A stretch of 64,000 nt of DNA. Source: a virus. Location of the stretch: positions 851-64,850 of IMG/VR virus record IMGVR_UViG_3300002855_000209; one strand, 5' to 3'. The notes beneath the pieces are model-generated. The model saw nothing but the letters and a program-made list of their open reading frames with translations. It did not search any database and was not told the origin of the DNA. The position numbers and the translations under genes were made by a program. Shown here one piece after another: positions 3,968 through 59,272 of the stretch (positions within the stretch are counted from its first letter, which is position 1; each line of letters begins with the position of its first letter).

Positions 3968-5374
3968 TTATCTTCTTTCTTTAATACGTTCTTCAAAAAA
4001 ACCTTCAGGCCAAAAATCCATAAAGTCACCATCTTCATCTAGGCGAATTTGAACTACTTCAGCTCCCATCTGCTCTTCTTCTTTATTACTAGGAATTACA
4101 TATAAAATTGATATATCTTCGGGTTTTAATTTTTTTCCATTAATGAGTTTTTTACTTCGAATTAGCTTTTGAATTCTCAACATTAAAGCTTCACTATGTG
4201 TTTCAATAATCCACTGATTATTATTGCAAGTTTCGGCAAAAAACTCAGCTAATTCAGCTTGAAGTTTTGGATGCAAATGAATTTCAGGTTGTTCAACACA
4301 GATTATTGATTCTTTTCTAACAATACCCTCAACTAGAATAGGTAAAATTTGTCCTATACCAAATCCAACATCAAGTGGAGAAACAGATACATTATTTCTT
4401 AAATCTACTAACTCAATTTGAATTAATGGTTCTGAATGTTTAGTACCAACTGGTTTTGGTGTAAATTCATATGGAATATTAAATTTCTTAAACCACTCAT
4501 TAATAAATTTTGATAAATTTTCATTATCACTTTTTAAGAAGTATGCAATATTTTCTCCTTCTTTACCTACGGAAACTTCGAACTCGCTATCAACAGAATA
4601 ATAACGTTTTGGATTACTCCTCAGCGGTCCTAAATAAGATATTTTTTTTAATTCTTTTTGAATAAAATTTGAATTACTTCGGATTTTTTCATTTAGAAAA
4701 TTGTGTATTTTAAACAAATCTTTATGAAAATTCTCTTTCTCAAGTTGTTCCCATACTTGCAAGTGCTTTCGGCCATCGACAGTTATTCGTTTAGGAATAG
4801 AAAATTCTTCTTCAGCCTCATATAAATAAACTCCCATTATTTTACTTATATATTCTTTTGGTAGATTATTTTTATTTAAAGGTAATTTAAAAGTTTTAGG
4901 TATTTCTAAGTCAAAACTCTTAGTAGAGGTTTCATCTCTACTATTGAATTTATTTTTAAAATTATATCCAAAGGAATCTCTCCGATTCTTATCCTCAAAT
5001 TCAATATTTTTTAAATAGGAAAAACCTTGCTTATCGTTATCATCATATGAATAAACAAAACTAGAATTCAATCTTTCAGATGAGCTTACTCGTCCTGTTC
5101 TATTTATAAAGTTTAAACTAAAAGAAATATCTTTTGTAATATCATGTGAGTAGACCATTGTAGAATAACTTCCTACATCTAAAATTTTTTTATCAGAGTA
5201 AATACCACTTTTTAAGTTAGAAAATAAAATAGATTGTTTTAGAACCATTAAAGCATGAATAATAGAGCTTTTACCTGATGAGTTTGCCCCATAAATTAAT
5301 GTAATTGGAGCTAAATCTATTTTTTGCAAATCAGCAAAAGCTTTAAAATTCTCAATACCTATTTGTTTTAACAT
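3968..5374 (-). CDS. ABC/AAA_15-21 ATPase with DUF3696-like C-terminus (OLD/Menshen NsnB-like)
   Basis: Walker A GANSSGKS; signature DVGFGIGQ; Walker B/D-loop VEQPEIHLHP; H-loop IETHSE; C-terminal LDEDGDFMDFWPEGFF. Confidence 0.85.
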   Translation of the reverse strand: MLKQIGIENFKAFADLQKIDLAPITLIYGANSSGKSSIIHALMVLKQSILFSNLKSGIYSDKKILDVGSYSTMVYSHDITKDISFSLNFINRTGRVSSSERLNSSFVYSYDDNDKQGFSYLKNIEFEDKNRRDSFGYNFKNKFNSRDETSTKSFDLEIPKTFKLPLNKNNLPKEYISKIMGVYLYEAEEEFSIPKRITVDGRKHLQVWEQLEKENFHKDLFKIHNFLNEKIRSNSNFIQKELKKISYLGPLRSNPKRYYSVDSEFEVSVGKEGENIAYFLKSDNENLSKFINEWFKKFNIPYEFTPKPVGTKHSEPLIQIELVDLRNNVSVSPLDVGFGIGQILPILVEGIVRKESIICVEQPEIHLHPKLQAELAEFFAETCNNNQWIIETHSEALMLRIQKLIRSKKLINGKKLKPEDISILYVIPSNKEEEQMGAEVVQIRLDEDGDFMDFWPEGFFEERIKERR

Positions 5375-48728: not shown

Positions 48729-50030
48729 TTAAGCCATACCCCGAATCCGTCTGACCTGAACAATCCGTTTAATAATCGGGAACCGTTTCGCTAATGGATA
48801 ACCACCTGCATCACCTACGTGGTCGAGTCCTGATTTCTTGTCAGGCATTCCAAAGTCATCATAAATCTGCTGTTCCAATGTCTCGGTAAACCGTGGGCAC
48901 TTATAAGTATTAACCTTTAACGTCCGTTCTCCATCACCATTCAGGATCAAAGCATTCACGGCATTTAAACGGTCTTTAATGGTCGGGTTAGTGTTATTTA
49001 CCTCTACCCGTAAACCATGCTGCCTTAAGATGGCATGATCCGATTCACTGCTATTTTTTGATGAAGTAGATTGTCCGGCAGCATCAGGAATAATCGTAAT
49101 TTCATGACCAGGGAAACGTTCAATAATCAGTTTGGCCATAGTTGGCGTATCACGAACTCCTACCAGCTCATCCAGCGCCAGAGGTTTACCGTCACGAATC
49201 ACATATACCACGGCGGCCATTTTCAGAACGTTAAAGTCCATACCGATAATTAACGGCTCATTCGGCTTAATCTCTTCATCGGTATGGTTGAGCCTACGGT
49301 CAAAGTCAGGATAAACAGCACCACTGGTTAAGTTAACGAACTGCCCACGTAAATATGCCTCAATGAGCTGAGGTGGATAGGATTCCCGTAAAGATGCAAT
49401 ATAGTCATCTGGTAGATTGGCCTCATTGTCATAGGTTGAAGCCTGAATCATTCCATAGAGCTTTCGCTTGGCCTCTGATTTATTCGCCTCTTTAACGAAT
49501 TGCTCGTACGTAAATTTAAAACCTTCCGGTGTAGTCGCTACATCAATACCATTCAGCAAACCTCCCTGTTTAAAGCGCATACGTGCGATGATCTTACGCC
49601 ACGCTTGCTGAGCCTTGTGGGTAGCCATAACATCGAGCTCATCAATCAGTGCATGACCAATCTTGAAACCGACAATTGTTGCCGGCTTCTCCATAGACCG
49701 GCAGATAATCGTGCTTCGATACTGACGACCGTAATAAAGATCGACCTCTTTATTCGATTCATAGATTTTGGTCTTTAAACCCCAGTCAAAAGCAACCTCA
49801 TCGACTGTTGGATAAAAGATATCCCGAATCTGAGGATATGTCGGTGCAAAGTAGCCCAGCCTAACTTTGGGGAATTCCCAAGCCTTATGGCATAAAGAAC
49901 CACAACCTACCCAAGTTTTTCCTCCACCAAATCCAGATATAAATGCCCTGAATTTGTTTTCCATTTGAAGAAATCTAGCCTGAGGCACATTCAGTGTCGG
50001 ATTGATATTCGGCATCTTTTTTACTCGCAT
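48729..50030 (-). CDS. terL: Terminase large subunit
   Basis: GFGGGKT Walker A; LIDE Walker B; TTPEG; IGMDFN and DH..DA nuclease motifs. Confidence 0.92.
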   Translation of the reverse strand: MRVKKMPNINPTLNVPQARFLQMENKFRAFISGFGGGKTWVGCGSLCHKAWEFPKVRLGYFAPTYPQIRDIFYPTVDEVAFDWGLKTKIYESNKEVDLYYGRQYRSTIICRSMEKPATIVGFKIGHALIDELDVMATHKAQQAWRKIIARMRFKQGGLLNGIDVATTPEGFKFTYEQFVKEANKSEAKRKLYGMIQASTYDNEANLPDDYIASLRESYPPQLIEAYLRGQFVNLTSGAVYPDFDRRLNHTDEEIKPNEPLIIGMDFNVLKMAAVVYVIRDGKPLALDELVGVRDTPTMAKLIIERFPGHEITIIPDAAGQSTSSKNSSESDHAILRQHGLRVEVNNTNPTIKDRLNAVNALILNGDGERTLKVNTYKCPRFTETLEQQIYDDFGMPDKKSGLDHVGDAGGYPLAKRFPIIKRIVQVRRIRGMA

Positions 50031-50496
50031 CTACAACTTGAATGGTTACCTTGACCGGTGTTGGATCATCTGCACCCTCACCATCGCCTGTCCTGATCTT
50101 TTCAATCTCAAGTTGTTTTAACTCAATATTCAGCAGTGTTAAGTCATGGCCCTGCATTTCTTCCCGAACCTGTTTAATCACACCTTGCTTCATTAGCCGG
50201 TTGTTCTTCCAGCCTTCATAAATTTTCTGAAGTTCTTTAATGCGATAGGCTTTATTAGCAAGTGGAATGTCATAAACATTTTTTTGAAAATCTGCTCTGG
50301 TTTTATTAAACAAAGTCACCAGTTTCTTACTTAGGTTTTTTCCCGTTGCTTTTGTTGGGTCATATAAAGCGACCTGCTGACGTTCAATTTCAATGTTAAA
50401 TTCTTGCTTTACAGCATCTGCCACCTGTTGAGGGGTTTCAAAGCAGGCAAGAGACTGAACTATAAAGATTTTTACAGGCTCTCTTAGTGTTGCCAT
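49975..50496 (-). CDS. terS: Terminase small subunit (DUF2280-like)
   Basis: KIFIVQSLACFETPQQVADAVKQEF, YDPTK; immediately upstream of terL. Confidence 0.8.
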   Translation of the reverse strand: MATLREPVKIFIVQSLACFETPQQVADAVKQEFNIEIERQQVALYDPTKATGKNLSKKLVTLFNKTRADFQKNVYDIPLANKAYRIKELQKIYEGWKNNRLMKQGVIKQVREEMQGHDLTLLNIELKQLEIEKIRTGDGEGADDPTPVKVTIQVVDASKKDAEYQSDTECASG

Positions 50497-50555
50497 ACTT
50501 GCCCCTTCGTAAAGCTACGTAAAGCAAAACAGGCAAAAAAAAGAGCCTTTTGGGC

Positions 50556-51203
50556 TCAATTGATTACGCAGTTTCCGCAGCATTTGGAAATATCTAGATT
50601 TGAAACAAACGGCGGATTCTTCGCAACCTCAACAAGACGTTTTACGCTCTTACTTGCTCCCCACCGTTTGGTTACACCAATAAATTCTTCAACATCATGA
50701 CCAGCTAAATAATGCTTAGGTAATCCAGTTGAGCTGCTAAAGATCATCTCACCGTCTTCATCACGTTCTACGCCTATATGATAAAGCTCATGCTCAAGCA
50801 AAGCGCAGAATTCACTATCGTTGGCTTTATCGCTAAAGGAAGCATCGATCGTAATCAGGTAAGTTGGTACAAATCCGAACCAGTCCCGCATCTGTTGTTC
50901 TTGTCTAGCTTTACGCCAGCCACCGACATTAAACATTACTTTCTCACACTGACCAAGAACCATGGCCTGTTTGCTTTTAAATGCTGACGAAGCCCACGCA
51001 AAAGCTAAGAATTCTTCATTATCATGAAGCAGCTCAGCAATATGGTCATGATCTGGATTGTGAAGTAGTCCACCAAGCGTTAGAAAGTTTGCTATAACCC
51101 ATTCCTTTAATTCTGGTGCAGGTTTTAAACGAATTGCTTCATCTTCTTCGGCTTTATCAATCAAGTCCTGTGGAGGAAATGGTCTGATCTGTTCCATTTT
51201 CAA
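50556..51203 (-). CDS. Phage putative metallopeptidase
   Basis: LLEHELYHIG HExxH motif; HDVEEF. Confidence 0.8.
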   Translation of the reverse strand: MKMEQIRPFPPQDLIDKAEEDEAIRLKPAPELKEWVIANFLTLGGLLHNPDHDHIAELLHDNEEFLAFAWASSAFKSKQAMVLGQCEKVMFNVGGWRKARQEQQMRDWFGFVPTYLITIDASFSDKANDSEFCALLEHELYHIGVERDEDGEMIFSSSTGLPKHYLAGHDVEEFIGVTKRWGASKSVKRLVEVAKNPPFVSNLDISKCCGNCVIN

Positions 51204-51594
51204 TTCTCGCTAATTCGCTTCTTATCCAGTTGATTGCATAACCTGATTCAATTTGATGAGGTTCAAGACGCTCAAATTTATAACCCTTATCTAAAGCTAG
51301 GTCATATTTTCCTAATGCATTAGCAATCTTTCTTCCGCCACGACCAACTGCCCAAGGACTTCCAGCAATTTCGATAAGAATATTCAACTTCACAATATAA
51401 AAATCGAACCGCCAATTTTTGGTTGAATCAAATTGAAATTTCCGTCGATAACCAATTAGATGCTCTTCTAGTTCTTGAAATAATGTTTCTTCAGCCTCTA
51501 AGTACTTCTGTGTTGCTTTAGGAAGTGGTCTACTCTTGGGTTTGGTTTTAGGTTCTTTTTTTCTTGTAAGCCAAAAATAATTTTTATCGTCCAT
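51157..51594 (-). CDS. PD-(D/E)XK/DUF559-like endonuclease-domain protein
   Basis: WRFDFYI...ILIEIAG. Confidence 0.6.
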   Translation of the reverse strand: MDDKNYFWLTRKKEPKTKPKSRPLPKATQKYLEAEETLFQELEEHLIGYRRKFQFDSTKNWRFDFYIVKLNILIEIAGSPWAVGRGGRKIANALGKYDLALDKGYKFERLEPHQIESGYAINWIRSELARIENGTDQTISSTGLD

Positions 51595-51631
51595 ATTTCA
51601 CCCATAAAAAAACCCACCGAAGTGGGCTTTT

Positions 51632-51847
51632 TTATTCATCAATTTGATCATGAAGTTTTTTGATGAACTCTAGCAATCTTTCTCTATTCTGATCATTGAT
51701 TGCAACCAAACCGCTACTAGCTGCGTTATTTAAAACAGCTACAGTTATTGCTGCTTTAGCCTTAATAATTTCGCTTTCAATAATTGTTTCAGTTTCAATC
51801 TTATTCATTACCATTAATTGGTTTCTCATTTTATAAAGTGAAAACAA
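51632..51847 (-). CDS. Small hypothetical protein
   Basis: Co-oriented ORF followed by terminator-like hairpin. Confidence 0.45.
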   Translation of the reverse strand: MFSLYKMRNQLMVMNKIETETIIESEIIKAKAAITVAVLNNAASSGLVAINDQNRERLLEFIKKLHDQIDE

Positions 51848-51901
51848 TTAATAGTATGTAAATAAAAATTAATCAAGCATATACTTAAAACTTTCAGTTG
51901 A

Positions 51902-52141
51902 TCATAATATCTGTGGAGCAAACGCAAGTAAATCTTTATAAAGCTTCTCTTCCGCTGCTCCACTTAATTTTTTATTACAATAGATGTAATAAAACGCATC
52001 CGGATATTCAAATCGATGAAGGTAATGTTTTCCATTAGTTGTATCTATCTCTGGAGCTGCATTACAAGGCAATGAAACTTCGAATTTATACTCTTCATAT
52101 TGTGGTTGGTATGTGGCAATAAAATAGTGTGAAGCTCTCAT
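51902..52141 (-). CDS. Small hypothetical protein
   Basis: 79-aa co-oriented ORF. Confidence 0.5.
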   Translation of the reverse strand: MRASHYFIATYQPQYEEYKFEVSLPCNAAPEIDTTNGKHYLHRFEYPDAFYYIYCNKKLSGAAEEKLYKDLLAFAPQIL

Positions 52142-52250
52142 TTTTTTATACTCAAGTTCTAGAACATTGAATATATCAAAATAAATCCTGATCTTTAAGA
52201 GTTAACAATCTCCCTCTTAAGAAAACAAAAGCCTCACCAATAATAGAGAT

Positions 52251-52478
52251 TTAGGCAATTTGGTCTAAACATGTTCCAATTTGCATTTCATTAAGTAATG
52301 CCAAATCCTTAATACTCATTTCTTCAATATTTTTATCAAAGTGTTTCTCAATATATGACAATCGCTCAGGATCTAAATCCAGATTACGGCTAAGATCTTT
52401 TATGAGATTATTGGTGTTAATAAGATGCTCTTTTACTATTTCTTCTTGTGTCATTGAAGTTGTCATTGGTATCTCCAA
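52251..52478 (-). CDS. Small hypothetical protein
   Basis: 75-aa co-oriented ORF with GGAG RBS. Confidence 0.5.
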   Translation of the reverse strand: MEIPMTTSMTQEEIVKEHLINTNNLIKDLSRNLDLDPERLSYIEKHFDKNIEEMSIKDLALLNEMQIGTCLDQIA

Positions 52479-52511
52479 ATTATTAGATACAAATATATAT
52501 CAAAAAAATGT

Positions 52512-52540
52512 AAAAAGCCCATCTTTCGATGAGCTCTTTT
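52512..52540 (-). terminator. Terminator after tandem peptide genes
   Basis: Imperfect hairpin GAGCTCATC-GAAA-GATGGGCTTTTT on minus strand. Confidence 0.55.
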
Positions 52541-52545
52541 AAAGA

Positions 52546-52650
52546 TTATCTTGGTTTCTTGATTAATTTTTCTGGCATTGAATCGCCAACAATCTTAATG
52601 GGTGGTGTTGGAGCTGGTGGCGGTACTGGCTTAGATGCACTTATACCCAT
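52546..52650 (-). CDS. 34-aa Pro-rich peptide 2
   Basis: MGISASKPVPPPAPTPPIKIVGDSMPEKLIKKPR; GGAG RBS; 1 nt after peptide 1 stop. Confidence 0.6.
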   Translation of the reverse strand: MGISASKPVPPPAPTPPIKIVGDSMPEKLIKKPR

Positions 52651-52651
52651 A

Positions 52652-52753
52652 TTATTTATGCTCCAGTTTACTTTTATCACTTCTTTCTTCAATAACTATT
52701 GGTGGTCTATCAACCTCTGGAGGAACAGGCTTATTAAATCGAATCTTTTCCAT
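52652..52753 (-). CDS. 33-aa Pro-rich peptide 1
   Basis: MEKIRFNKPVPPEVDRPPIVIEERSDKSKLEHK; 5 nt after stop of TM gene. Confidence 0.6.
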   Translation of the reverse strand: MEKIRFNKPVPPEVDRPPIVIEERSDKSKLEHK

Positions 52754-52758
52754 ATAAC

Positions 52759-53283
52759 TTAAATGATCAAAATATCAACTATAATCAATAATACAGTTAA
52801 CACAAACATTAATCCACAGAATTTTATCTCCATAAAAGCCTTATTCAAATAATTAACTTTTATAGTATTTCTATCTTCATATGTTTTAATAACCTCAGCC
52901 ATATCGATGGAAAGATAATAATAGATAGTTGGTAGCTCATTCTGTGTAAAGTAATTTACCATATCCTTATTATTTTCTAGTTTCCCCACCTTACTAACTT
53001 CTAGAACATGAAATAAATTTCTAGCTATACTGGATAATGACAAAAAAACAAAAATCATCAAAACGACAATTAAGTAAAATATAAAAGATTTTTTTTCAAC
53101 ATCAAACAAATACTGTTTTGAAAATATACTCATAGCCGCAATAATTATTGATGTAAATGTTAGATATTTAGCAGCTTTATCTTCATGTTTTGCATGTAAT
53201 GCCTTTACACTTTCAAGCCCTTTCAATTGAAACTCATAAAGTGTTTTATAAACTTCTTTATCAAATTGATCTTCGGCAGTCAT
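52759..53283 (-). CDS. 3-TM membrane protein (Pycsar-effector-like topology)
   Basis: N-terminal helix, TM hairpin, soluble loop, C-terminal TM; likely ATG at 53283 with GGAG RBS. Confidence 0.65.
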   Translation of the reverse strand: MTAEDQFDKEVYKTLYEFQLKGLESVKALHAKHEDKAAKYLTFTSIIIAAMSIFSKQYLFDVEKKSFIFYLIVVLMIFVFLSLSSIARNLFHVLEVSKVGKLENNKDMVNYFTQNELPTIYYYLSIDMAEVIKTYEDRNTIKVNYLNKAFMEIKFCGLMFVLTVLLIIVDILII

Positions 53284-53297
53284 TAAAAACTCCAAAT

Positions 53298-53320
53298 AAA
53301 AACCCCGCATTGCGAGGTTT
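53298..53320 (-). terminator. tR'-like terminator
   Basis: AAACCTCGC-AAT-GCGGGGTTTTT about 30 nt downstream of the late promoter. Confidence 0.65.
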
Positions 53321-53347
53321 ATCCAATGGTTTACTTACACTTCGACC

Positions 53348-53387
53348 ACTATAACGCAAAAATAGCATTTACCCTGTACAGGGTCAA
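53348..53387 (-). promoter_or_regulatory. Late promoter pR'-like with palindromic Q-binding candidate and -10-like pause element
   Basis: TTGACC-17 nt-TATTTT; palindrome ACCCTGTACAGGGT (53371-53384) in spacer; TATAGT near +1. Confidence 0.6.
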
Positions 53388-53416
53388 GTTCTGAAGCCCT
53401 AAACGATTCAATTATC

Positions 53417-54325
53417 TCAAACACCTAAGATTTTTTTAACTACAAGAGCATCATCTAAATATCCAACAATATAATGTGGTTGGAAATATTGTGTTTTTGC
53501 CCTTAAATTCTGAATTTCTGGTTTAACATTATAGGGAGGATTCGTTAACAAATAAGCCGAAACAAAGTCATCCGTGTCATAAAAGTTAAACCAATCTCCT
53601 TTTAATGAAGAGGGTTTAGTACGATCTTTGAAATAATCATAAAATACAGGGATGCCCAAAGGAGAGCCTAAAGTTACTAACCGAGAAATCTTATAAGAGG
53701 AATTTAAATGCTGTAGAGCATCTAGACAAACAGCACTACCAAGAGAATGCCCAACCAATACAATTTCTTTCTTAGAATCCTCTTTTATCTTACTTAATAA
53801 TCTTTCCCTCACTTTGGATCTATATTGCTCATTCTCAAGAAATAGATTTGCCTCTTTAGCAAATATCTTAAGCACCCATGTATGAAGCTTTTGAAATCTA
53901 CTCGTAATTTTAATTAATGCCTTCGCACCTTTATCTATAAAAGAATATGGAGTTAAAGTACTTTTTAAATTAACAGGAATTCCTTCAATCGGTAATGTTC
54001 CCATCTGATCAGTAGTATCTCCCTCCATCGAATCAGCAATATTGATTAAAATATCCTGCTCATCTAATGACAAATCATTAAAGTTTTTTTCAAAAGCATG
54101 AAATCCACTGGTCTGTAAATCAAACAAGACTTTATTAGAAGTTGGTGTATTTAAATAATCCTTTACTAGATCTCCATAATAAATAAACTCAAATTCTGTT
54201 GTCGCTGGAACATTCGGTATATGTGCCTGAAATACTCCCTCTAAGAAGGCCTCTATCCATATTTTTTTCAATGTTTCAGGATCCTTATCAGTCTGGTTGA
54301 TCCCGTGTACCATTATTATTTTCAT
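53417..54325 (-). CDS. Alpha/beta hydrolase (lipase-like)
   Basis: IMVHGI; GHSLG nucleophile elbow; VTLGSPL; N.YD.DD.V; C-terminal His. Confidence 0.8.
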   Translation of the reverse strand: MKIIMVHGINQTDKDPETLKKIWIEAFLEGVFQAHIPNVPATTEFEFIYYGDLVKDYLNTPTSNKVLFDLQTSGFHAFEKNFNDLSLDEQDILINIADSMEGDTTDQMGTLPIEGIPVNLKSTLTPYSFIDKGAKALIKITSRFQKLHTWVLKIFAKEANLFLENEQYRSKVRERLLSKIKEDSKKEIVLVGHSLGSAVCLDALQHLNSSYKISRLVTLGSPLGIPVFYDYFKDRTKPSSLKGDWFNFYDTDDFVSAYLLTNPPYNVKPEIQNLRAKTQYFQPHYIVGYLDDALVVKKILGV

Positions 54326-54439
54326 GACTTTATCCTTTTAATTATATTGAAATTTTATTATATTCTTTTAAATATTAAGTGCAAACATAAGCCAGTTCAA
54401 AGCATAATATTTATATTGAACTCATCTAAAATATTTTGC

Positions 54440-54850
54440 ATGAAATCTCTAGAAGTCGTTGCCGCAGTCATCCAACACCAGGATAAAATCTTATGTGCCC
54501 TTAAAGGTGAGCATAAGTATCCCTATCTATCGAATAAGTATGAATTCCCGGGCGGCAAAGTCGAAGCTGAAGAAACACTCGAGCAAGCGCTCATTCGAGA
54601 AATTAAAGAAGAGCTCAATCTTGATATTGAAGTAACAGAGTATCTATTAACTGTAGAGCACGCCTACCCCAACTTTAATATCGAGCTGGCCACTTTTATG
54701 TGCGTGACTAAGACTATCGAAGAATTGGCTTTAAGTGAGCACCAGGATGTACAATGGTGCACAATCGATGAATTAGATCAGCTCGACTGGGCTGCTGCTG
54801 ATATCCCCATCGTGAAATACTTACTTGATAATAAGACTGCAGCATGTTGA
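54440..54850 (+). CDS. NUDIX hydrolase (MutT/NudG-like dNTP pyrophosphohydrolase)
   Basis: EFPGGKVEAEETLEQALIREIKEEL Nudix box; VEHAYP; LDWAAADIP; ATG at 54440. Confidence 0.9.
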   Translation: MKSLEVVAAVIQHQDKILCALKGEHKYPYLSNKYEFPGGKVEAEETLEQALIREIKEELNLDIEVTEYLLTVEHAYPNFNIELATFMCVTKTIEELALSEHQDVQWCTIDELDQLDWAAADIPIVKYLLDNKTAAC

Positions 54851-55677
54851 AAGATTTTAGACAATTAAAACCAGGTACCATTTTAGATAATGATGGATTA
54901 CGTGATTACTTCCTTTGCTCACCTCAGGGCGGAATGCGTCGGTCTCACAAGACCAACACCCTCATCATCGTTTCAAACCATGTAGAGTCCGTCTATGAAG
55001 ATCGATGGATTGGCGATGAGCTACACTACACCGGCATGGGCCAGCTCGGTGACCAGGGATTAACAAGTCAAAATAGAACATTAGCTGAAAGTCATACTAA
55101 CGGCGTTTCAGTTCATCTTTTTGAAGTATTTGTCGATAAAGAATATATCTATCAAGGTCCAGTTACTCTCGTAGCAGATCCATATCAAAAAATTCAACCT
55201 GATGCTAATAAACAAGATCGGTTAGTCTGGATATTCCCCGTTAAATTATCTGATTCCAATACGGCGATTAGTGTAGAGACCATAGAGCGCACTAGTCAGA
55301 AAAAGCAGCGTAAGTATAAGAAGAAATCGATTGAGCAGTTGATGGCAGATGCTCATGCTACAGCACAAACGCAAGTCAGCTACCGTAATACCAAAACAAA
55401 ATACTTTATTCGTTCCGATGCTATTGCCCAGCTTGCTAAGCGTTTAGCTAATGGCATTTGTCAGCTCTGTGAACAGCCTGCCCCTTTTAAAGACAAAAGT
55501 GGTGAGCCTTACCTGGAAACTCACCATATTGAATGGTTGGCACATGGTGGACCAGATACCGCTGAAAATACGGTAGCACTTTGCCCGAATTGCCATAAGA
55601 AAATGCATGTTGTGAATGCTGAGGCAGATCGGAAAAAGCTTTTATTAAATACAAGAAATTTACAAACACATTCTTAA
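54844..55677 (+). CDS. SRA-like domain + HNH endonuclease (McrA-like, modification-dependent)
   Basis: QGGMR, YEDRW, HYTGMGQLGDQ, QNRTL SRA-like motifs; CQLC...LETHHIEWL..GG.D...N.VALCPNCH HNH. Confidence 0.8.
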   Translation: MLKDFRQLKPGTILDNDGLRDYFLCSPQGGMRRSHKTNTLIIVSNHVESVYEDRWIGDELHYTGMGQLGDQGLTSQNRTLAESHTNGVSVHLFEVFVDKEYIYQGPVTLVADPYQKIQPDANKQDRLVWIFPVKLSDSNTAISVETIERTSQKKQRKYKKKSIEQLMADAHATAQTQVSYRNTKTKYFIRSDAIAQLAKRLANGICQLCEQPAPFKDKSGEPYLETHHIEWLAHGGPDTAENTVALCPNCHKKMHVVNAEADRKKLLLNTRNLQTHS

Positions 55678-55714
55678 AACATACTCATTTCATAGAAAAT
55701 TTAATGGATAAATA

Positions 55715-56395
55715 ATGGAACAGTTTTTAAAACGTATATCTTTTTTTCTTATCTACTTACCCGCATTAGTATATGCCTGTCAATTTGCCTATTATGCAGG
55801 ATTAGGCGAGCCTTTAAATATTCACGTTACTTCTTTGGGTTTAAATTACCCAGAAGTAGTGTTAATGGGATATTTATATATTTCTCTACCAGTTCTTGAA
55901 TCTATTTTTTGGTTGGCAATATCAATAACTTTCATCTTATGCCTTGTGTTTGTGACTTTCAGTATTCGCTGGTTACAAAAGCATAAAGGTACTGAAATAG
56001 AATATCGTGAATATATTGAAAAAAGTTTCAGAAGAGTAAGAATCTGTTTATATAAACAAAAAAAGGATTTAATAAAAGCAATTAATTCTTTCATTGGAGT
56101 TTTAGGCTTATATTTTGTCATATTTGTTTTTACTTTTTTATTAATTTTATTTTACTACAAATTAGGGACAAAAGAGATTGAAAATAAAGTTCAAGATATT
56201 TTAAATTCACAGACTTGTAATACTTCAGATGGATATATAACTTCCAACAATATAAAAGTACGAGTCAAAACTATTTTATGCGGTTACAACAAATGCTATG
56301 GAATTTCTTTAGATAATAAAGAAGCTATAATTTATCCACCAGAACAATCTGCACAACCGATTGATGAATCAAAGTTTAAAAATAAAGTACCATAA
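55715..56395 (+). CDS. Multi-TM membrane protein
   Basis: About 4 hydrophobic segments and a small C-terminal Cys-containing domain. Confidence 0.6.
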   Translation: MEQFLKRISFFLIYLPALVYACQFAYYAGLGEPLNIHVTSLGLNYPEVVLMGYLYISLPVLESIFWLAISITFILCLVFVTFSIRWLQKHKGTEIEYREYIEKSFRRVRICLYKQKKDLIKAINSFIGVLGLYFVIFVFTFLLILFYYKLGTKEIENKVQDILNSQTCNTSDGYITSNNIKVRVKTILCGYNKCYGISLDNKEAIIYPPEQSAQPIDESKFKNKVP

Positions 56396-56432
56396 GGTAC
56401 TTTATTTTATCTATATAGTCCTTATTTTTAAA

Positions 56433-57224
56433 CTAAATATCAGTTAATATTCCTTGTAAGCCAGCACTTATCAAAATACCATATACAATAATTACCAGAA
56501 TAAAAATTACTATACCAGGAGTATTAATCTTATTATCAGCAAAAATATTCAAACTATATATACTTGAGAAAACATATGCACCAATTAAACTGCAATTAAA
56601 AATCATTATTAACCCCATTTGTATTGTAGCTGAAATGCTTAAATATATAACTTCATGTTGCTTGCATAAAAAATATGCATAGTAACTACACAAAAATATG
56701 AGTAATACTCCGCTAAAAAACAGCATATAGTTTTTTAGTTTTTTATCGTATATATACAAAATTAAGAAAACTACTAACAAATAACCCGAAAATAGGCTAT
56801 AATCGAAAAATTCCACATATTTATATTTTTTTAAAATAATTTTAGCAAAAATAATTGTCGTAATATATAATGCCAATAAAGTTGATTGACTTAAAATAAA
56901 AGAAAACACTTCTCTTTTTAAATCAAAACGCTTTTTTTCATCATGTATCTTATTGATATTTAATCTAGATACATCATCTTGAAGACTGATTAATTCTTCA
57001 GAATTTATTTCATAAATATTTCCATCTTTTTTCCAGAGTCTTTCATCAAATTTTTTTAAAATATCGCTTGAATTACTTTGACTTATATCTATACATGTCA
57101 CAAGTCTAGCTCTTAACTCACTAGCTTTACTTTTATGACAACATTTTCCATCTAATAAAGACACCTCATACAACCAAGTTTTTATGGCATTCTTTTCATT
57201 GTTCTGGTTGAATTGTTCTTGCAT
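56433..57224 (-). CDS. Multi-TM membrane protein with soluble N-terminus
   Basis: About 5 C-terminal TM segments; AT-rich. Confidence 0.6.
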   Translation of the reverse strand: MQEQFNQNNEKNAIKTWLYEVSLLDGKCCHKSKASELRARLVTCIDISQSNSSDILKKFDERLWKKDGNIYEINSEELISLQDDVSRLNINKIHDEKKRFDLKREVFSFILSQSTLLALYITTIIFAKIILKKYKYVEFFDYSLFSGYLLVVFLILYIYDKKLKNYMLFFSGVLLIFLCSYYAYFLCKQHEVIYLSISATIQMGLIMIFNCSLIGAYVFSSIYSLNIFADNKINTPGIVIFILVIIVYGILISAGLQGILTDI

Positions 57225-57424
57225 GTCTAAATTCTCTAATTTATAAGTAAAAAATAAACAAAATATTATACATTAAAATATATTGTTTTAAAAATCAGAC
57301 ATGTAATCGCTATTAAAAATTTAATAAAACCACCTAAAGGTGGCTTACTATTTAATTGGTGTATTAAACTAGTCTGGATTAGTTTCTAACCTCCCCCATT
57401 TGAAAAAATACCAACAGCATGTTA

Positions 57425-57943
57425 CTAATACCCAATAAACCCATATCGACAATGCAACACCGCTAACCCACACTTAACATCGCTACGTGCATCTGATTGC
57501 GAGCGATCTTCTCTCACCATTTCAGACCATGACTGCCCGCGAAAGTAACGGTCAATAATCGCCCCCATCCATTCATCCATGACTTCACTCTGCCCCATTA
57601 AATCTAAAACTAAGCGCTGTACTGCACGTGCTTCATTGTCATCAATCTGGCACTGGGTTTTAGATTTGGTTTTACGAAACGGATCTGATTCGCTCACGAA
57701 GTAATTGGCAATAATTTCCCGTTGTTTCTTCTTACCTAACCGCTTTAAACGGCGCTGCTTTTCAGCCTGAACCATTGCTGAGGCAATCGGATTACTGTAA
57801 GCACCTGAAGGAATGCCCGTAAAACTCTTTTGATCTAACCATGCACCGAACTGATATAACCAGCCCTCTAGATCGAATCGTGTCCACTCCACTGAGTGCA
57901 TAACATGCTTCTTATCGATCATTAGTGTCATTCGTTCCCCCAA
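57425..57943 (-). CDS. Late antitermination protein Q
   Basis: LEGWLYQFGAW, IDDNEARAVQRL, VKCGLAVL; last early gene; cognate pR'-like element present. Confidence 0.7.
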   Translation of the reverse strand: MGERMTLMIDKKHVMHSVEWTRFDLEGWLYQFGAWLDQKSFTGIPSGAYSNPIASAMVQAEKQRRLKRLGKKKQREIIANYFVSESDPFRKTKSKTQCQIDDNEARAVQRLVLDLMGQSEVMDEWMGAIIDRYFRGQSWSEMVREDRSQSDARSDVKCGLAVLHCRYGFIGY

Positions 57944-58334
57944 TCATTTTCTCTATCTGCTGAACCGCTAAACCTGACTTCACTTGCTCTGTGCTGAACC
58001 GTAAAACTGTAAAACCCATCATTGCCGCCGAGTTATATTTCTCCATATCCCCCATATAACCTTTGCCCCTTGTGTGACGTCCACCACCTGCCATCCAGAT
58101 ACCGCCCTCTACCTCAACCAGAATCCTTGTTCCCGTAATCACAAAATCAGCTCTCCATTTGCGTTTCGGGTGGAATTTATATTCCTGCTCAAAACTGATC
58201 TTGCATGCTCTTAAGTGTGTTGCCAGTACGGTCTCGCCTTCACTTGGCTGTCTAGTACCTTGCTTTGCTGAACAGCGTTTCTTTGTCTTCACTGGAAATA
58301 ATTCACGGTATTCAGCAAGGCTCATTGATGTCAT
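57912..58334 (-). CDS. DUF559/RusA-like endonuclease
   Basis: EYKFHPKRKWRADF, VEVEGG, DMEKYN; ATGA overlap with replication gene. Confidence 0.75.
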   Translation of the reverse strand: MTSMSLAEYRELFPVKTKKRCSAKQGTRQPSEGETVLATHLRACKISFEQEYKFHPKRKWRADFVITGTRILVEVEGGIWMAGGGRHTRGKGYMGDMEKYNSAAMMGFTVLRFSTEQVKSGLAVQQIEKMIGGTNDTNDR

Positions 58335-59272
58335 GCTGCCCCCTGCAATGTGCCTTTGAACCCAACTTGCTTGAGATACGGTTCCCATTGTTTAGCCTGA
58401 ACTGGATCGCTAAGTTTTACGGCGATACGTGCTGCGAGTTGATCGTAGCTTTCCCCTGCAGCTGCAAACTGACTTGCGAACTCAGGATGTTGTGAGAGTT
58501 TTTGAGCGAAGGTGTGAACCTGTTTATCGCTCAACTGGTGCGGTGCGCCCGGCGAGCACCGAACTGATGACCCTGAATTTCGGAAACCTGTCTGTTCACG
58601 AGCTTGGTATTTGCCACTTGCGTTGATTAACCAATCTGCAAAGTGGTAATGCTTGAGTTCATCACAAAGATTCTTATCGGCGTTGTAGAGTTCAAATGCT
58701 CGAAGCTCCCGATCAAACCAAGTTGCGTTTTTGATCTGCTCGTAAGTTTCCTGATCAGTTGCCAAACGAATTTCTTCACCAAGTTTTTTCAAACTCAACC
58801 ATGTTTTTTTATTTTTAGATTCATCTGATAGATTCCCTGATAGGTTCTGTGTCCCAATATTGGGACTGGTCTCGGTACCGTTTTTGGGACTGGTTGCGGT
58901 CCCATTATTGGTACTAGTACCGTTTTTGGAACCAGTACCGAAATTGGAACTAGTTCCGTTATTGGTACTAGTCCCCTTTTTGGGACTGGTTAAGTCATTT
59001 TCTTCACGGCCCATTACACCAATTAACTGGTAAACCTTCACACCATTTCCTGTGATTTCACCTGTAAATCTAATTAATGAAATTGCTTCAAGCTCATCTA
59101 ATACTTTGATCACTGTTTTACGGTTAAGGACAGTGTCTTTAACCATTCGTTTAATGCTTGGGTAGCACTTGTGAGATTCTCCCGCTCTATCAGCTAAGGC
59201 CAATAAAACGAGTCTTTGACTTGAGGTTTTAACCTCTGCTTTGAAAGCCCAAATGGTTGCGTCCAGACTCAT
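58331..59272 (-). CDS. Replication initiator (HTH N-terminus, lambda O-like)
   Basis: RLVLLALADRA..CYPSI; central xNGT repeats encoded by iterons. Confidence 0.85.
   Translation of the reverse strand: MSLDATIWAFKAEVKTSSQRLVLLALADRAGESHKCYPSIKRMVKDTVLNRKTVIKVLDELEAISLIRFTGEITGNGVKVYQLIGVMGREENDLTSPKKGTSTNNGTSSNFGTGSKNGTSTNNGTATSPKNGTETSPNIGTQNLSGNLSDESKNKKTWLSLKKLGEEIRLATDQETYEQIKNATWFDRELRAFELYNADKNLCDELKHYHFADWLINASGKYQAREQTGFRNSGSSVRCSPGAPHQLSDKQVHTFAQKLSQHPEFASQFAAAGESYDQLAARIAVKLSDPVQAKQWEPYLKQVGFKGTLQGAA
58852..58990. repeat. Iteron-like repeats (putative phage origin) inside initiator gene
   Basis: TTGGGACTGGT x3, ATTGGTACTAGT x2, GTACCGTTTTTGG x2. Confidence 0.65.

Follow-up and report, generated by a model that had tools for sequence, protein, structure and literature searches.

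The stretch of DNA analysed here (the window; 64,000 nucleotides (nt), positions 851 to 64,850 of IMG/VR record IMGVR_UViG_3300002855_000209) is part of a 70.9-kb provirus that is most closely related to prophages from the Acinetobacter calcoaceticus/pittii group. It carries two overlapping plus-strand genes, of which the first (P0001; 54440..54850) encodes a 136-amino-acid (aa) NUDIX hydrolase and the second (P0002; 54844..55677) a 277-aa protein that joins an SRA reader to an HNH nuclease. The best explanation is that the two genes form a type IV restriction module, which an Acinetobacter prophage carries as accessory cargo. P0002 is predicted, from its AlphaFold2 (AF2) model and from Foldseek and PADLOC matches, to be a modified-cytosine-dependent restriction endonuclease, and P0001, from Pfam, PADLOC and PDB matches, to be a 5-substituted (d)CTP pyrophosphohydrolase. 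The most likely purpose of the NUDIX protein, at a probability that we put at roughly one half, is self-protection through cleaning of the nucleotide pool.

The two genes share 7 base pairs (bp) (ATGTTGA; 54844..54850, plus strand), with the ATG of P0002 inside the stop of P0001, an arrangement that, as read from the sequence, couples their translation; the identical overlap occurs in loci L001–L003. The preliminary description of the window had named this overlap of the two genes, a GC content above that of the neighbours, an intact Nudix box, and SRA-like and HNH motifs in a TagI-type architecture. All of these were borne out, the last by the Pfam HNH match, the AF2 model with its Foldseek matches and the conserved residues given below. 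GC is 0.41–0.43 across the pair and 0.25–0.32 in the flanks (51600–54400 and 55600–57300). Since the pair matches the phage backbone (0.42–0.47), the compositional outliers are the adjoining AT-rich accessory genes and not the pair, and a reading of its higher GC as a sign of recent foreign insertion was rejected.

Linkage was surveyed from the nuclease side using full-length P0002 homologues and one genome per species (49 loci). A P0001 homologue was adjacent (≤331 bp) in 34 of these species-level SRA-HNH loci, against a chance expectation of about 0.1 of 49 (assuming three to four such NUDIX genes per 2–3-Mb genome), an adjacency far beyond chance. The preliminary description had proposed a survey of NUDIX/SRA-HNH synteny and had taken rare co-occurrence as a sign against a coupled pair; the survey was strongly positive and no such rarity was seen. 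The NUDIX gene comes first in 13 of the pairs and the nuclease gene in 20, one pair being divergent, and most pairs in both orders show either overlaps of stop and start codons by a few bases or gaps of one to two bases. The pairs span four phyla, that is, Pseudomonadota (Acinetobacter, Vibrio and Providencia), Bacillota (Paenibacillus, Bacillus, Listeria and others), Bacteroidota and Saccharibacteria. Among Acinetobacter prophages, DNA homology to the window begins at 54436–54441, at the NUDIX ATG, and stops between 55624 and 55880; because the homology bounds the two-gene unit while the flanking cargo differs, P0001 and P0002 are taken to be passed on as one block in a variable slot.

Two further arrangements were observed among these prophages. 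The A. calcoaceticus DSM 30006 contig NZ_KB849780.1 holds two copies of the module (L001 and L002), about 225 kb apart, with nucleases 96% and 93% identical to P0002 and differing flanking cargo, apparently in two prophages. In Acinetobacter proteolyticus NIPH 809 (L006:3557-4804), the NUDIX gene is intact and the SRA-HNH frame is split into open reading frames (ORFs) at 4055–4351 and 4565–4804, a case of a decaying nuclease whose NUDIX partner persists.

More informative than any other result was the reciprocal survey, which took the 80 nearest relatives of P0001 retrieved and noted the genes directly beside them; it revealed a wider set of partners. Fifty of these NUDIX genes lie beside a gene for a protein of about 970 aa with PLD, SF2 helicase and DUF3427 domains, which is the architecture of SauUSI, an enzyme that cuts DNA containing 5-methylcytosine (5mC) or 5-hydroxymethylcytosine (5hmC). 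Four lie beside SRA-HNH genes (one of them the broken L006 gene), one beside an SRA joined to a NOV_C domain, and several more directly follow McrC-like genes; two are SRA-NUDIX fusions of 461–462 aa. About 25 of the 80 had no recognised reader nuclease alongside, some of them on contigs that end early. Both fusions (L141:2503-3888 and L157:2497-3885) come from metagenome-assembled genomes of Erysipelotrichaceae or Bacilli and comprise an SRA-like region (aa 8–112), a NUDIX domain (aa 166–283) and a C-terminal part of about 175 aa that had no Pfam match; no HNH was found in them. In four loci from Flavobacteriaceae, Methanobrevibacter and Bacteroidaceae (L102, L103, L105 and L125), the NUDIX gene comes directly after a McrC-like gene (DUF2357 plus PDDEXK_7), with a 4-bp overlap of the two in L102, and in three of the four a SauUSI-type gene then follows, so that the NUDIX gene is placed between two different modified-cytosine restriction systems.

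A NUDIX tree (a quick search on 132 columns, with many unresolved forks) placed P0001 in a supported clade of 45 rows, 20 of them partnered with SRA-HNH and 18 with SauUSI-type nucleases, and it requires at least four partner switches. Because the same clade partners unrelated nuclease architectures, the NUDIX protein tracks the base that is read rather than the type of nuclease, a pattern that speaks for a role linked to modified cytosine and against a specific protein interface. A complex prediction for P0001 with P0002, run on our own alignments, scored 0.00 and weighs neither way.

P0001 matches the Pfam models NUDIX_4 (2.4e-17) and NUDIX (5.1e-17), and its Nudix box is intact (G39-x5-E45-x7-R53-E54-x2-E57-E58), only the terminal, non-catalytic Gly being replaced, by Asn60. 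Across an alignment of 43 NUDIX homologues, E35, G38, G39, K40, E45, R53, E54, E57, E58, H101 and D121 are invariant. The PADLOC defence candidate PDC-S07 is matched end to end (1.2e-47; residues 1–131 on profile positions 3–131 of 135). The nearest NCBIfam model is a generic Nudix model, followed by NudG (PRK10546, 92.5 bits against a cut-off of 156) and MutT (TIGR00586, 75.9 against 97.9); as both scores fall below the equivalog cut-offs, P0001 belongs to a related clade and is an orthologue of neither.

In the PDB, the best match of P0001 is 3GWY (6.7e-34), at about 50% identity over 129 residues as counted from the printed alignment, followed by Escherichia coli NudG (2RRK; 1e-16) and MutT (1e-11). 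Beyond the Nudix box, P0001 has E35, Y76, E100-H101 and D121 in common with 3GWY. His101 and Asp121 are found in NudG as well, whereas MutT has Gly and Asn119 at these positions, the latter a residue that takes part in recognition of 8-oxoguanine. P0001 falls on the pyrimidine (NudG-like) side of the MutT group.

The protein of the 3GWY structure, Q5LBB1_BACFN, was screened against 74 Nudix substrates by Nguyen et al. 2016 (PMC5158307). Its kcat/Km was 6.7e6 M-1 s-1 for 5-Me-CTP, 4.8e6 M-1 s-1 for 5-Me-dCTP and 4.4e6 M-1 s-1 for 5-hydroxymethyl-dCTP (hm-dCTP), values near the diffusion limit (kcat 14–45 s-1, Km 3–10 uM), and 8.5e4 M-1 s-1 for 5-OH-dCTP, that is, about 50-fold slower, while canonical nucleoside triphosphates were far poorer substrates (PMC5158307). 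Cleavage of modified CTPs is at the alpha-beta bond, with pyrophosphate as a product (PMC5158307), and E. coli NudG likewise prefers 5-methyl-dCTP. By analogy, P0001 is predicted to hydrolyse 5-methyl-(d)CTP and 5-hydroxymethyl-dCTP, and the measured specificity of this relative supports the earlier proposal of a NudG-like enzyme with a modified-dCTP substrate. Q5LBB1 itself was not among the 120 best matches of the homology search, and a back-translated Q5LBB1 peptide pattern found no matching stretch in genome contigs.

In P0002, the reader spans aa 1 to about 140 (54844..55263, plus strand), where the model forms an SRA/YDG-like beta-barrel with matches to SRA structures, and the HNH (beta-beta-alpha-Me) nuclease domain with its zinc finger spans aa 176–277 (55369..55677, plus strand). 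Pfam HNH is matched at aa 206–255 (1.9e-10), the C-terminal part matches the PADLOC model of type IV methyl-directed enzymes, mREase_IV (1.6e-18), and the HNH domain has 40% sequence identity with its EcoKMcrA counterpart (4e-17), ScoMcrA and TagI being weaker by sequence. The Pfam SAD_SRA match is sub-threshold (19 bits against a cut-off of 30.7; aa 27–105), but structure search confirmed the fold. The AF2 model (mean predicted local distance difference test score 88, predicted template modelling score 0.78) matched ScoMcrA (6.5e-13), TagI (5e-9) and EcoKMcrA in a Foldseek search of the PDB; it also matched the 5mC/5hmC-binding SRA domains of SUVH5 (template modelling score 0.65–0.74 on the target), UHRF1 and UHRF2, and further the readers of MspJI, AspBHI and LpnPI.

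The residues expected of an active enzyme are kept. In an alignment of 36 P0002 homologues, the pocket residues Y51, D53, Y62, T63, G64 and G66 are invariant or nearly so (Y51, D53, Y62 and T63 at ≥90%), and C206-x2-C209, H227-H228, N242, C247-x2-C250-H251 and H255 are present in all or nearly all. The flipped-base pocket described in the TagI paper is walled by Tyr55 and Tyr67 and includes the Asp58 carboxylate and Thr68, the carboxylate in such pockets serving to read the edge of the cytosine; D53, Y62 and T63 of P0002 align with Asp58, Tyr67 and Thr68, and Y51 is offset by one from Tyr55, a shift that keeps the pocket width (5mC versus 5hmC) from being read. With fold, pocket and zinc and catalytic residues conserved, architecture and motifs are those of an active SRA-HNH type IV enzyme, and we infer by analogy that its cleavage depends on modified cytosine (5mC or 5hmC). 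No cytosine-C5 methyltransferase (PF00145) was found in the provirus record or in five module-bearing Acinetobacter genomes, under a search whose control was positive in 9 of 14 reference genomes. The host DNA would thus be unmarked and safe from the nuclease, barring incorporation of modified cytosine from the pool.

Under the self-protection reading, the SRA domain of P0002 would flip out 5-methyl- or 5-hydroxymethylcytosine and the HNH domain would cut nearby, destroying incoming modified phage or plasmid DNA. P0001 would convert 5-methyl-(d)CTP and 5-hydroxymethyl-dCTP to the monophosphate, removing the triphosphates of the very bases that P0002 reads. Such nucleotides could arise from restricted foreign DNA, from the early enzymes of an infection aborted by the nuclease (in the case of hm-dCTP) and from turnover of rRNA and tRNA containing m5C. 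In this way P0001 would prevent modified cytosine from entering the host chromosome and so from exposing it to the cell's own nuclease; draining the precursors of phages that build DNA from hm-dCTP or 5-methyl-dCTP (5m-dCTP) would be a secondary benefit. The pair lies antisense to phage late transcription, within a variable slot of AT-rich cargo genes, and because it is transcribed against the late genes the module probably serves the lysogen.

Several observations weigh against this reading. The specificity of P0001 is extrapolated from a single relative of about 50% identity, its NCBIfam scores being sub-cut-off, and incorporation presupposes that bacteria would efficiently re-phosphorylate 5m-dCMP or 5hm-dCMP. 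Fifteen of the 49 SRA-HNH homologues (about 30%) have no adjacent NUDIX gene, and no substitute pyrophosphatase (MazG or similar) was found beside them (13 of the 15 loci examined; 10 small neighbours from seven loci searched by Pfam). One such case is in the same prophage slot: in Acinetobacter sp. HY1485 (L009:4001-4843) the SRA-HNH gene stands alone. Finally, a NUDIX deletion in Staphylococcus aureus Newman was viable and did not render the strain transformable, restriction of plasmid DNA persisting with sauUSI intact (Monk et al. 2012). As the deleted strain is viable and still restricts, the NUDIX protein is not required for SauUSI restriction; it is an accessory and can be regarded neither as an essential subunit nor as an obligate antitoxin. 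For the S. aureus pair a strict antitoxin role is thereby excluded, so any protective effect must be conditional. Self-protection tolerates the viable deletion, because its benefit may be of just this conditional kind.

Acinetobacter sp. HY1485 also offers a natural strain for comparison without the NUDIX gene: the lone SRA-HNH gene is preceded by 311 nt of empty sequence, and the conserved flanks of the slot match the window at 50218–51636 and 57967–58184.

The main competitor, to which we give distinctly less credence than to self-protection, holds that the NUDIX protein is an independent second antiviral arm that hydrolyses phage hm-dCTP or 5m-dCTP, so that phages replacing all of their cytosine fail to replicate. 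Such an activity would also reach phages that evade the SRA-HNH nuclease by decorating their hmC DNA with sugars: TagI spares glucosylated hmC DNA (TagI paper), and an enzyme acting on nucleotides would cover that gap. The characterised homologue takes 5-hydroxymethyl-dCTP at the rates given above (PMC5158307), with a kcat that puts such depletion within quantitative reach; our rough reckoning is that about 1000 copies of the enzyme in each cell would keep pace with the hm-dCTP flux during infection by a T4-type phage. PADLOC lists the family as a stand-alone defence candidate (PDC-S07), and roughly 25 of the 80 relatives are without a recognised reader nuclease alongside. Acinetobacter is host to T4-like phages, which makes this explanation attractive for the genus.

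The taxonomic range speaks against such starvation, since most pairs are in Bacillota, Bacteroidota, Saccharibacteria and Methanobrevibacter, while only Proteobacteria are known to host phages that make their DNA out of modified dCTP (TagI paper). Precursor starvation would be without a target in staphylococci, gut anaerobes and methanogens, because foreign 5mC is there presumably made on DNA by methyltransferases, whereas self-protection is applicable in all paired taxa and is favoured for that reason. The homologue is equally active on the ribonucleotide 5-Me-CTP, an activity useless for starving a phage, which favours pool cleaning. Phage kinases can, moreover, re-phosphorylate the monophosphate product, and a literature search gave no phage assay or functional test of any PDC-S07 member. 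The two roles, which the preliminary description had set side by side as alternatives, are not mutually exclusive.

It is unlikely that the NUDIX protein has no functional coupling to the nuclease and is a general MutT/NudG-type antimutator or pool cleaner that travels with defence genes. The best NCBIfam matches are indeed to generic Nudix, NudG and MutT models (all sub-cut-off), databases label it MutT or 8-oxo-dGTP diphosphatase, and the S. aureus deletion had no restriction phenotype. A mere traveller is difficult to reconcile, however, with adjacency that recurs with at least three unrelated nuclease architectures having only the read base in common, in both gene orders, with frequent stop/start overlap, in at least four phyla plus archaea and in SRA fusions. 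The inherited block in Acinetobacter prophages is bounded exactly at the two-gene unit, and the position of MutT Asn119 is Asp, as in NudG.

It is about as improbable that the NUDIX protein is a physical partner or regulator, which would bind the reader-nuclease or act on DNA or RNA ends and so tune or license cleavage. This would accord with the SRA-NUDIX fusions and with the tight expression coupling through overlapping genes, and the Pfam NUDIX_4 model also includes the DNA-reading C-terminal domain of MutY. It fits poorly with the persistence of S. aureus restriction without the NUDIX protein, with the invariance of the catalytic Nudix residues among the 43 homologues, with the exchange of one NUDIX clade among unrelated nucleases and with a homologue that on its own is a fast free-nucleotide hydrolase. 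The proposal of the 2011 SauUSI paper, that the NUDIX protein degrades pyrophosphate from ATP or dATP hydrolysis by the nuclease, is already disfavoured and very improbable, as SRA-HNH enzymes need no nucleoside triphosphate yet have the same NUDIX partner, and the characterised homologue releases pyrophosphate and consumes none.

The preliminary description had also seen no characterised system in the pairing. This stands for SRA-HNH and NUDIX, on which the literature search returned no paper, and the SRA-HNH family papers (Lutz 2019; Han 2015) leave NUDIX unmentioned and report no conserved neighbour. It does not stand for the analogous arrangement at SauUSI: Xu et al. 2011 noted that sauUSI, together with at least 60 SauUSI-like genes, has a linked MutT/NUDIX gene, and they guessed at pyrophosphate breakdown while leaving the function open. 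No paper tying the 2016 Nudix biochemistry to restriction was found either. P0002 is described as a new member of a known nuclease family, and the module as a type IV restriction variant that has been seen but never explained and that a concrete enzymatic activity, measured in a relative of P0001, now backs.

Compared with the published SRA-HNH enzymes TagI, ScoA3IV (Sco5333) and TbiR51I (PDB 6GHS), P0002 has the same N-terminal SRA reader and C-terminal HNH domain with zinc finger, a similar length (277 versus about 285–311 aa) and the same pocket Asp/Tyr/Thr and HNH residues. Its sequence similarity to TagI is marginal (1.3e-4), however, with the first pocket Tyr one position closer to the Asp and a second zinc motif that is CxxC rather than the CxxD of TagI, and the published enzymes are described as single genes, whereas P0002 is prophage-borne and NUDIX-coupled. 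ScoMcrA (PDB 5ZMM) is the best structural match over SRA plus HNH but has extra head and sulfur-binding domains, and EcoKMcrA (PDB 6GHC), the owner of the HNH domain with 40% identity, differs in its N-terminal reader; no NUDIX partner has been described for either. SauUSI resembles the present system in that it is a type IV nuclease dependent on modified cytosine and that a MutT/NUDIX gene is conserved beside it (upstream; SAUSA300_2432, Sae2385 in Newman), but the enzyme, of about 950 aa, is ATP-dependent and has a PLD-helicase-DUF3427 architecture in place of SRA-HNH.

P0001, for its part, is like Q5LBB1 (Bacteroides fragilis) and NudG (Orf135) a small single-domain NUDIX protein of the MutT group, and it has in common with 3GWY a K-x-x-Y-x-S insertion ahead of YEFPGGK and the EH and AD(I/K)P motifs. 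Both of these enzymes hydrolyse 5-methyl-dCTP, and Q5LBB1 hydrolyses 5-hydroxymethyl-dCTP as well; unlike P0001, both have been interpreted as antimutator pool cleaners without a link to restriction, and Arg72 and Arg77 of NudG align with His74 and Phe79 of P0001. PDC-S07 stands in PADLOC as a candidate of one gene, for which neither mechanism nor partner is described. Enzymes of nucleotide-depletion defences (dCTP deaminase, dGTPase) and human DCTPP1 also act on the deoxynucleotide pool, limiting viral replication or keeping 5-modified dCTP from DNA. Their folds are unrelated, and the depletion defences take canonical deoxynucleoside triphosphates upon infection, whereas P0001 is predicted to remove modified cytosine nucleotides only and is paired with a nuclease.

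As to expression, the AT-rich divergent intergenic region ahead of the pair (54326..54439) is its presumed promoter on a reading of the sequence. No Shine-Dalgarno sequence was seen ahead of the NUDIX ATG, and a scan for promoters and terminators around the pair gave matches no commoner than in shuffles. RNA-seq-derived contigs from four studies, 91–94% identical to the window, carry both genes contiguously. One of 1253 nt starts 6 nt before the NUDIX ATG and ends about 50 nt past the last matching base, 55637; a second starts beside adapter sequence at 54441 and continues through the downstream membrane-protein gene to 56360. These contigs hint, as a lead only, at a bicistronic, near-leaderless transcript of the pair, and the membrane-protein gene may be co-transcribed with the module, as homology in two RNA-seq assemblies reaches to about 56360. 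Because the data are assembled contigs in which other prophage regions are represented too, they establish neither transcription nor transcript ends.

The phage genes nearest the pair are on the minus strand and encode the large terminase (48729–50030), a presumed small terminase (49975–50496; a small ORF) and a phage metallopeptidase (50556–51203). On the other side, also on the minus strand, are an ORF at 57425–57943, whose counterpart position in L009 encodes a weakly Q-like protein, and a gene for a DUF559 protein (57912–58388). The cargo between comprises, on the minus strand, very AT-rich genes for a 183-aa membrane protein with a weak PADLOC PycTM match (52759–53310; 1.6e-4) and a 302-aa lipase_3/PGAP1-like alpha/beta hydrolase (53417–54325). 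Beyond the module are a plus-strand gene for a 226-aa multi-pass membrane protein (55715–56395), which begins 38 nt past the nuclease stop, and a second membrane-protein cargo gene (56433–57224). The 55715–56395 gene is missing beside the module in most other Acinetobacter prophages. A megablast search of the phage collection with window positions 53400–56400 returned no match.

A conserved element of about 60 nt (53330–53389; …ACTTCGACCACTATAACG…CCCTG..CAGGGTCAAG…) recurs in related Acinetobacter prophages, lying directly upstream of the NUDIX gene in L004, L006 and L008; in the window the lipase-like gene intervenes. On the minus strand it reads TTGACC-17 nt-TATTTT, flanking a short palindrome, for which reason it may be the phage late promoter or a Q-utilisation site and delimit the cargo slot. 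In folding it does not surpass shuffled sequence (z = -0.6).

Type IV restriction enzymes have been treated as single-protein systems that need no protection of the host DNA. The linkage of one NUDIX family to at least three unrelated nuclease architectures, in bacteria and archaea, suggests instead that these systems do have to protect self, or else attack in a second way, and that they do so through the nucleotide pool. If P0001 proved to act directly on phages, it would become the first defence enzyme with demonstrated selective destruction of a nucleotide specific to phages (hm-dCTP or 5m-dCTP), and the pair would attack one phage trait twice, in the precursor and in the polymer. The reading proposed here joins three items that the literature found had left unconnected, namely the partner gene of 2011–2012, the orphan biochemical activity of 2016 and an unexplained PADLOC candidate. 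A related question on which it touches is how cells keep epigenetically marked nucleotides from being reused in DNA, the task of DCTPP1 in human cells.

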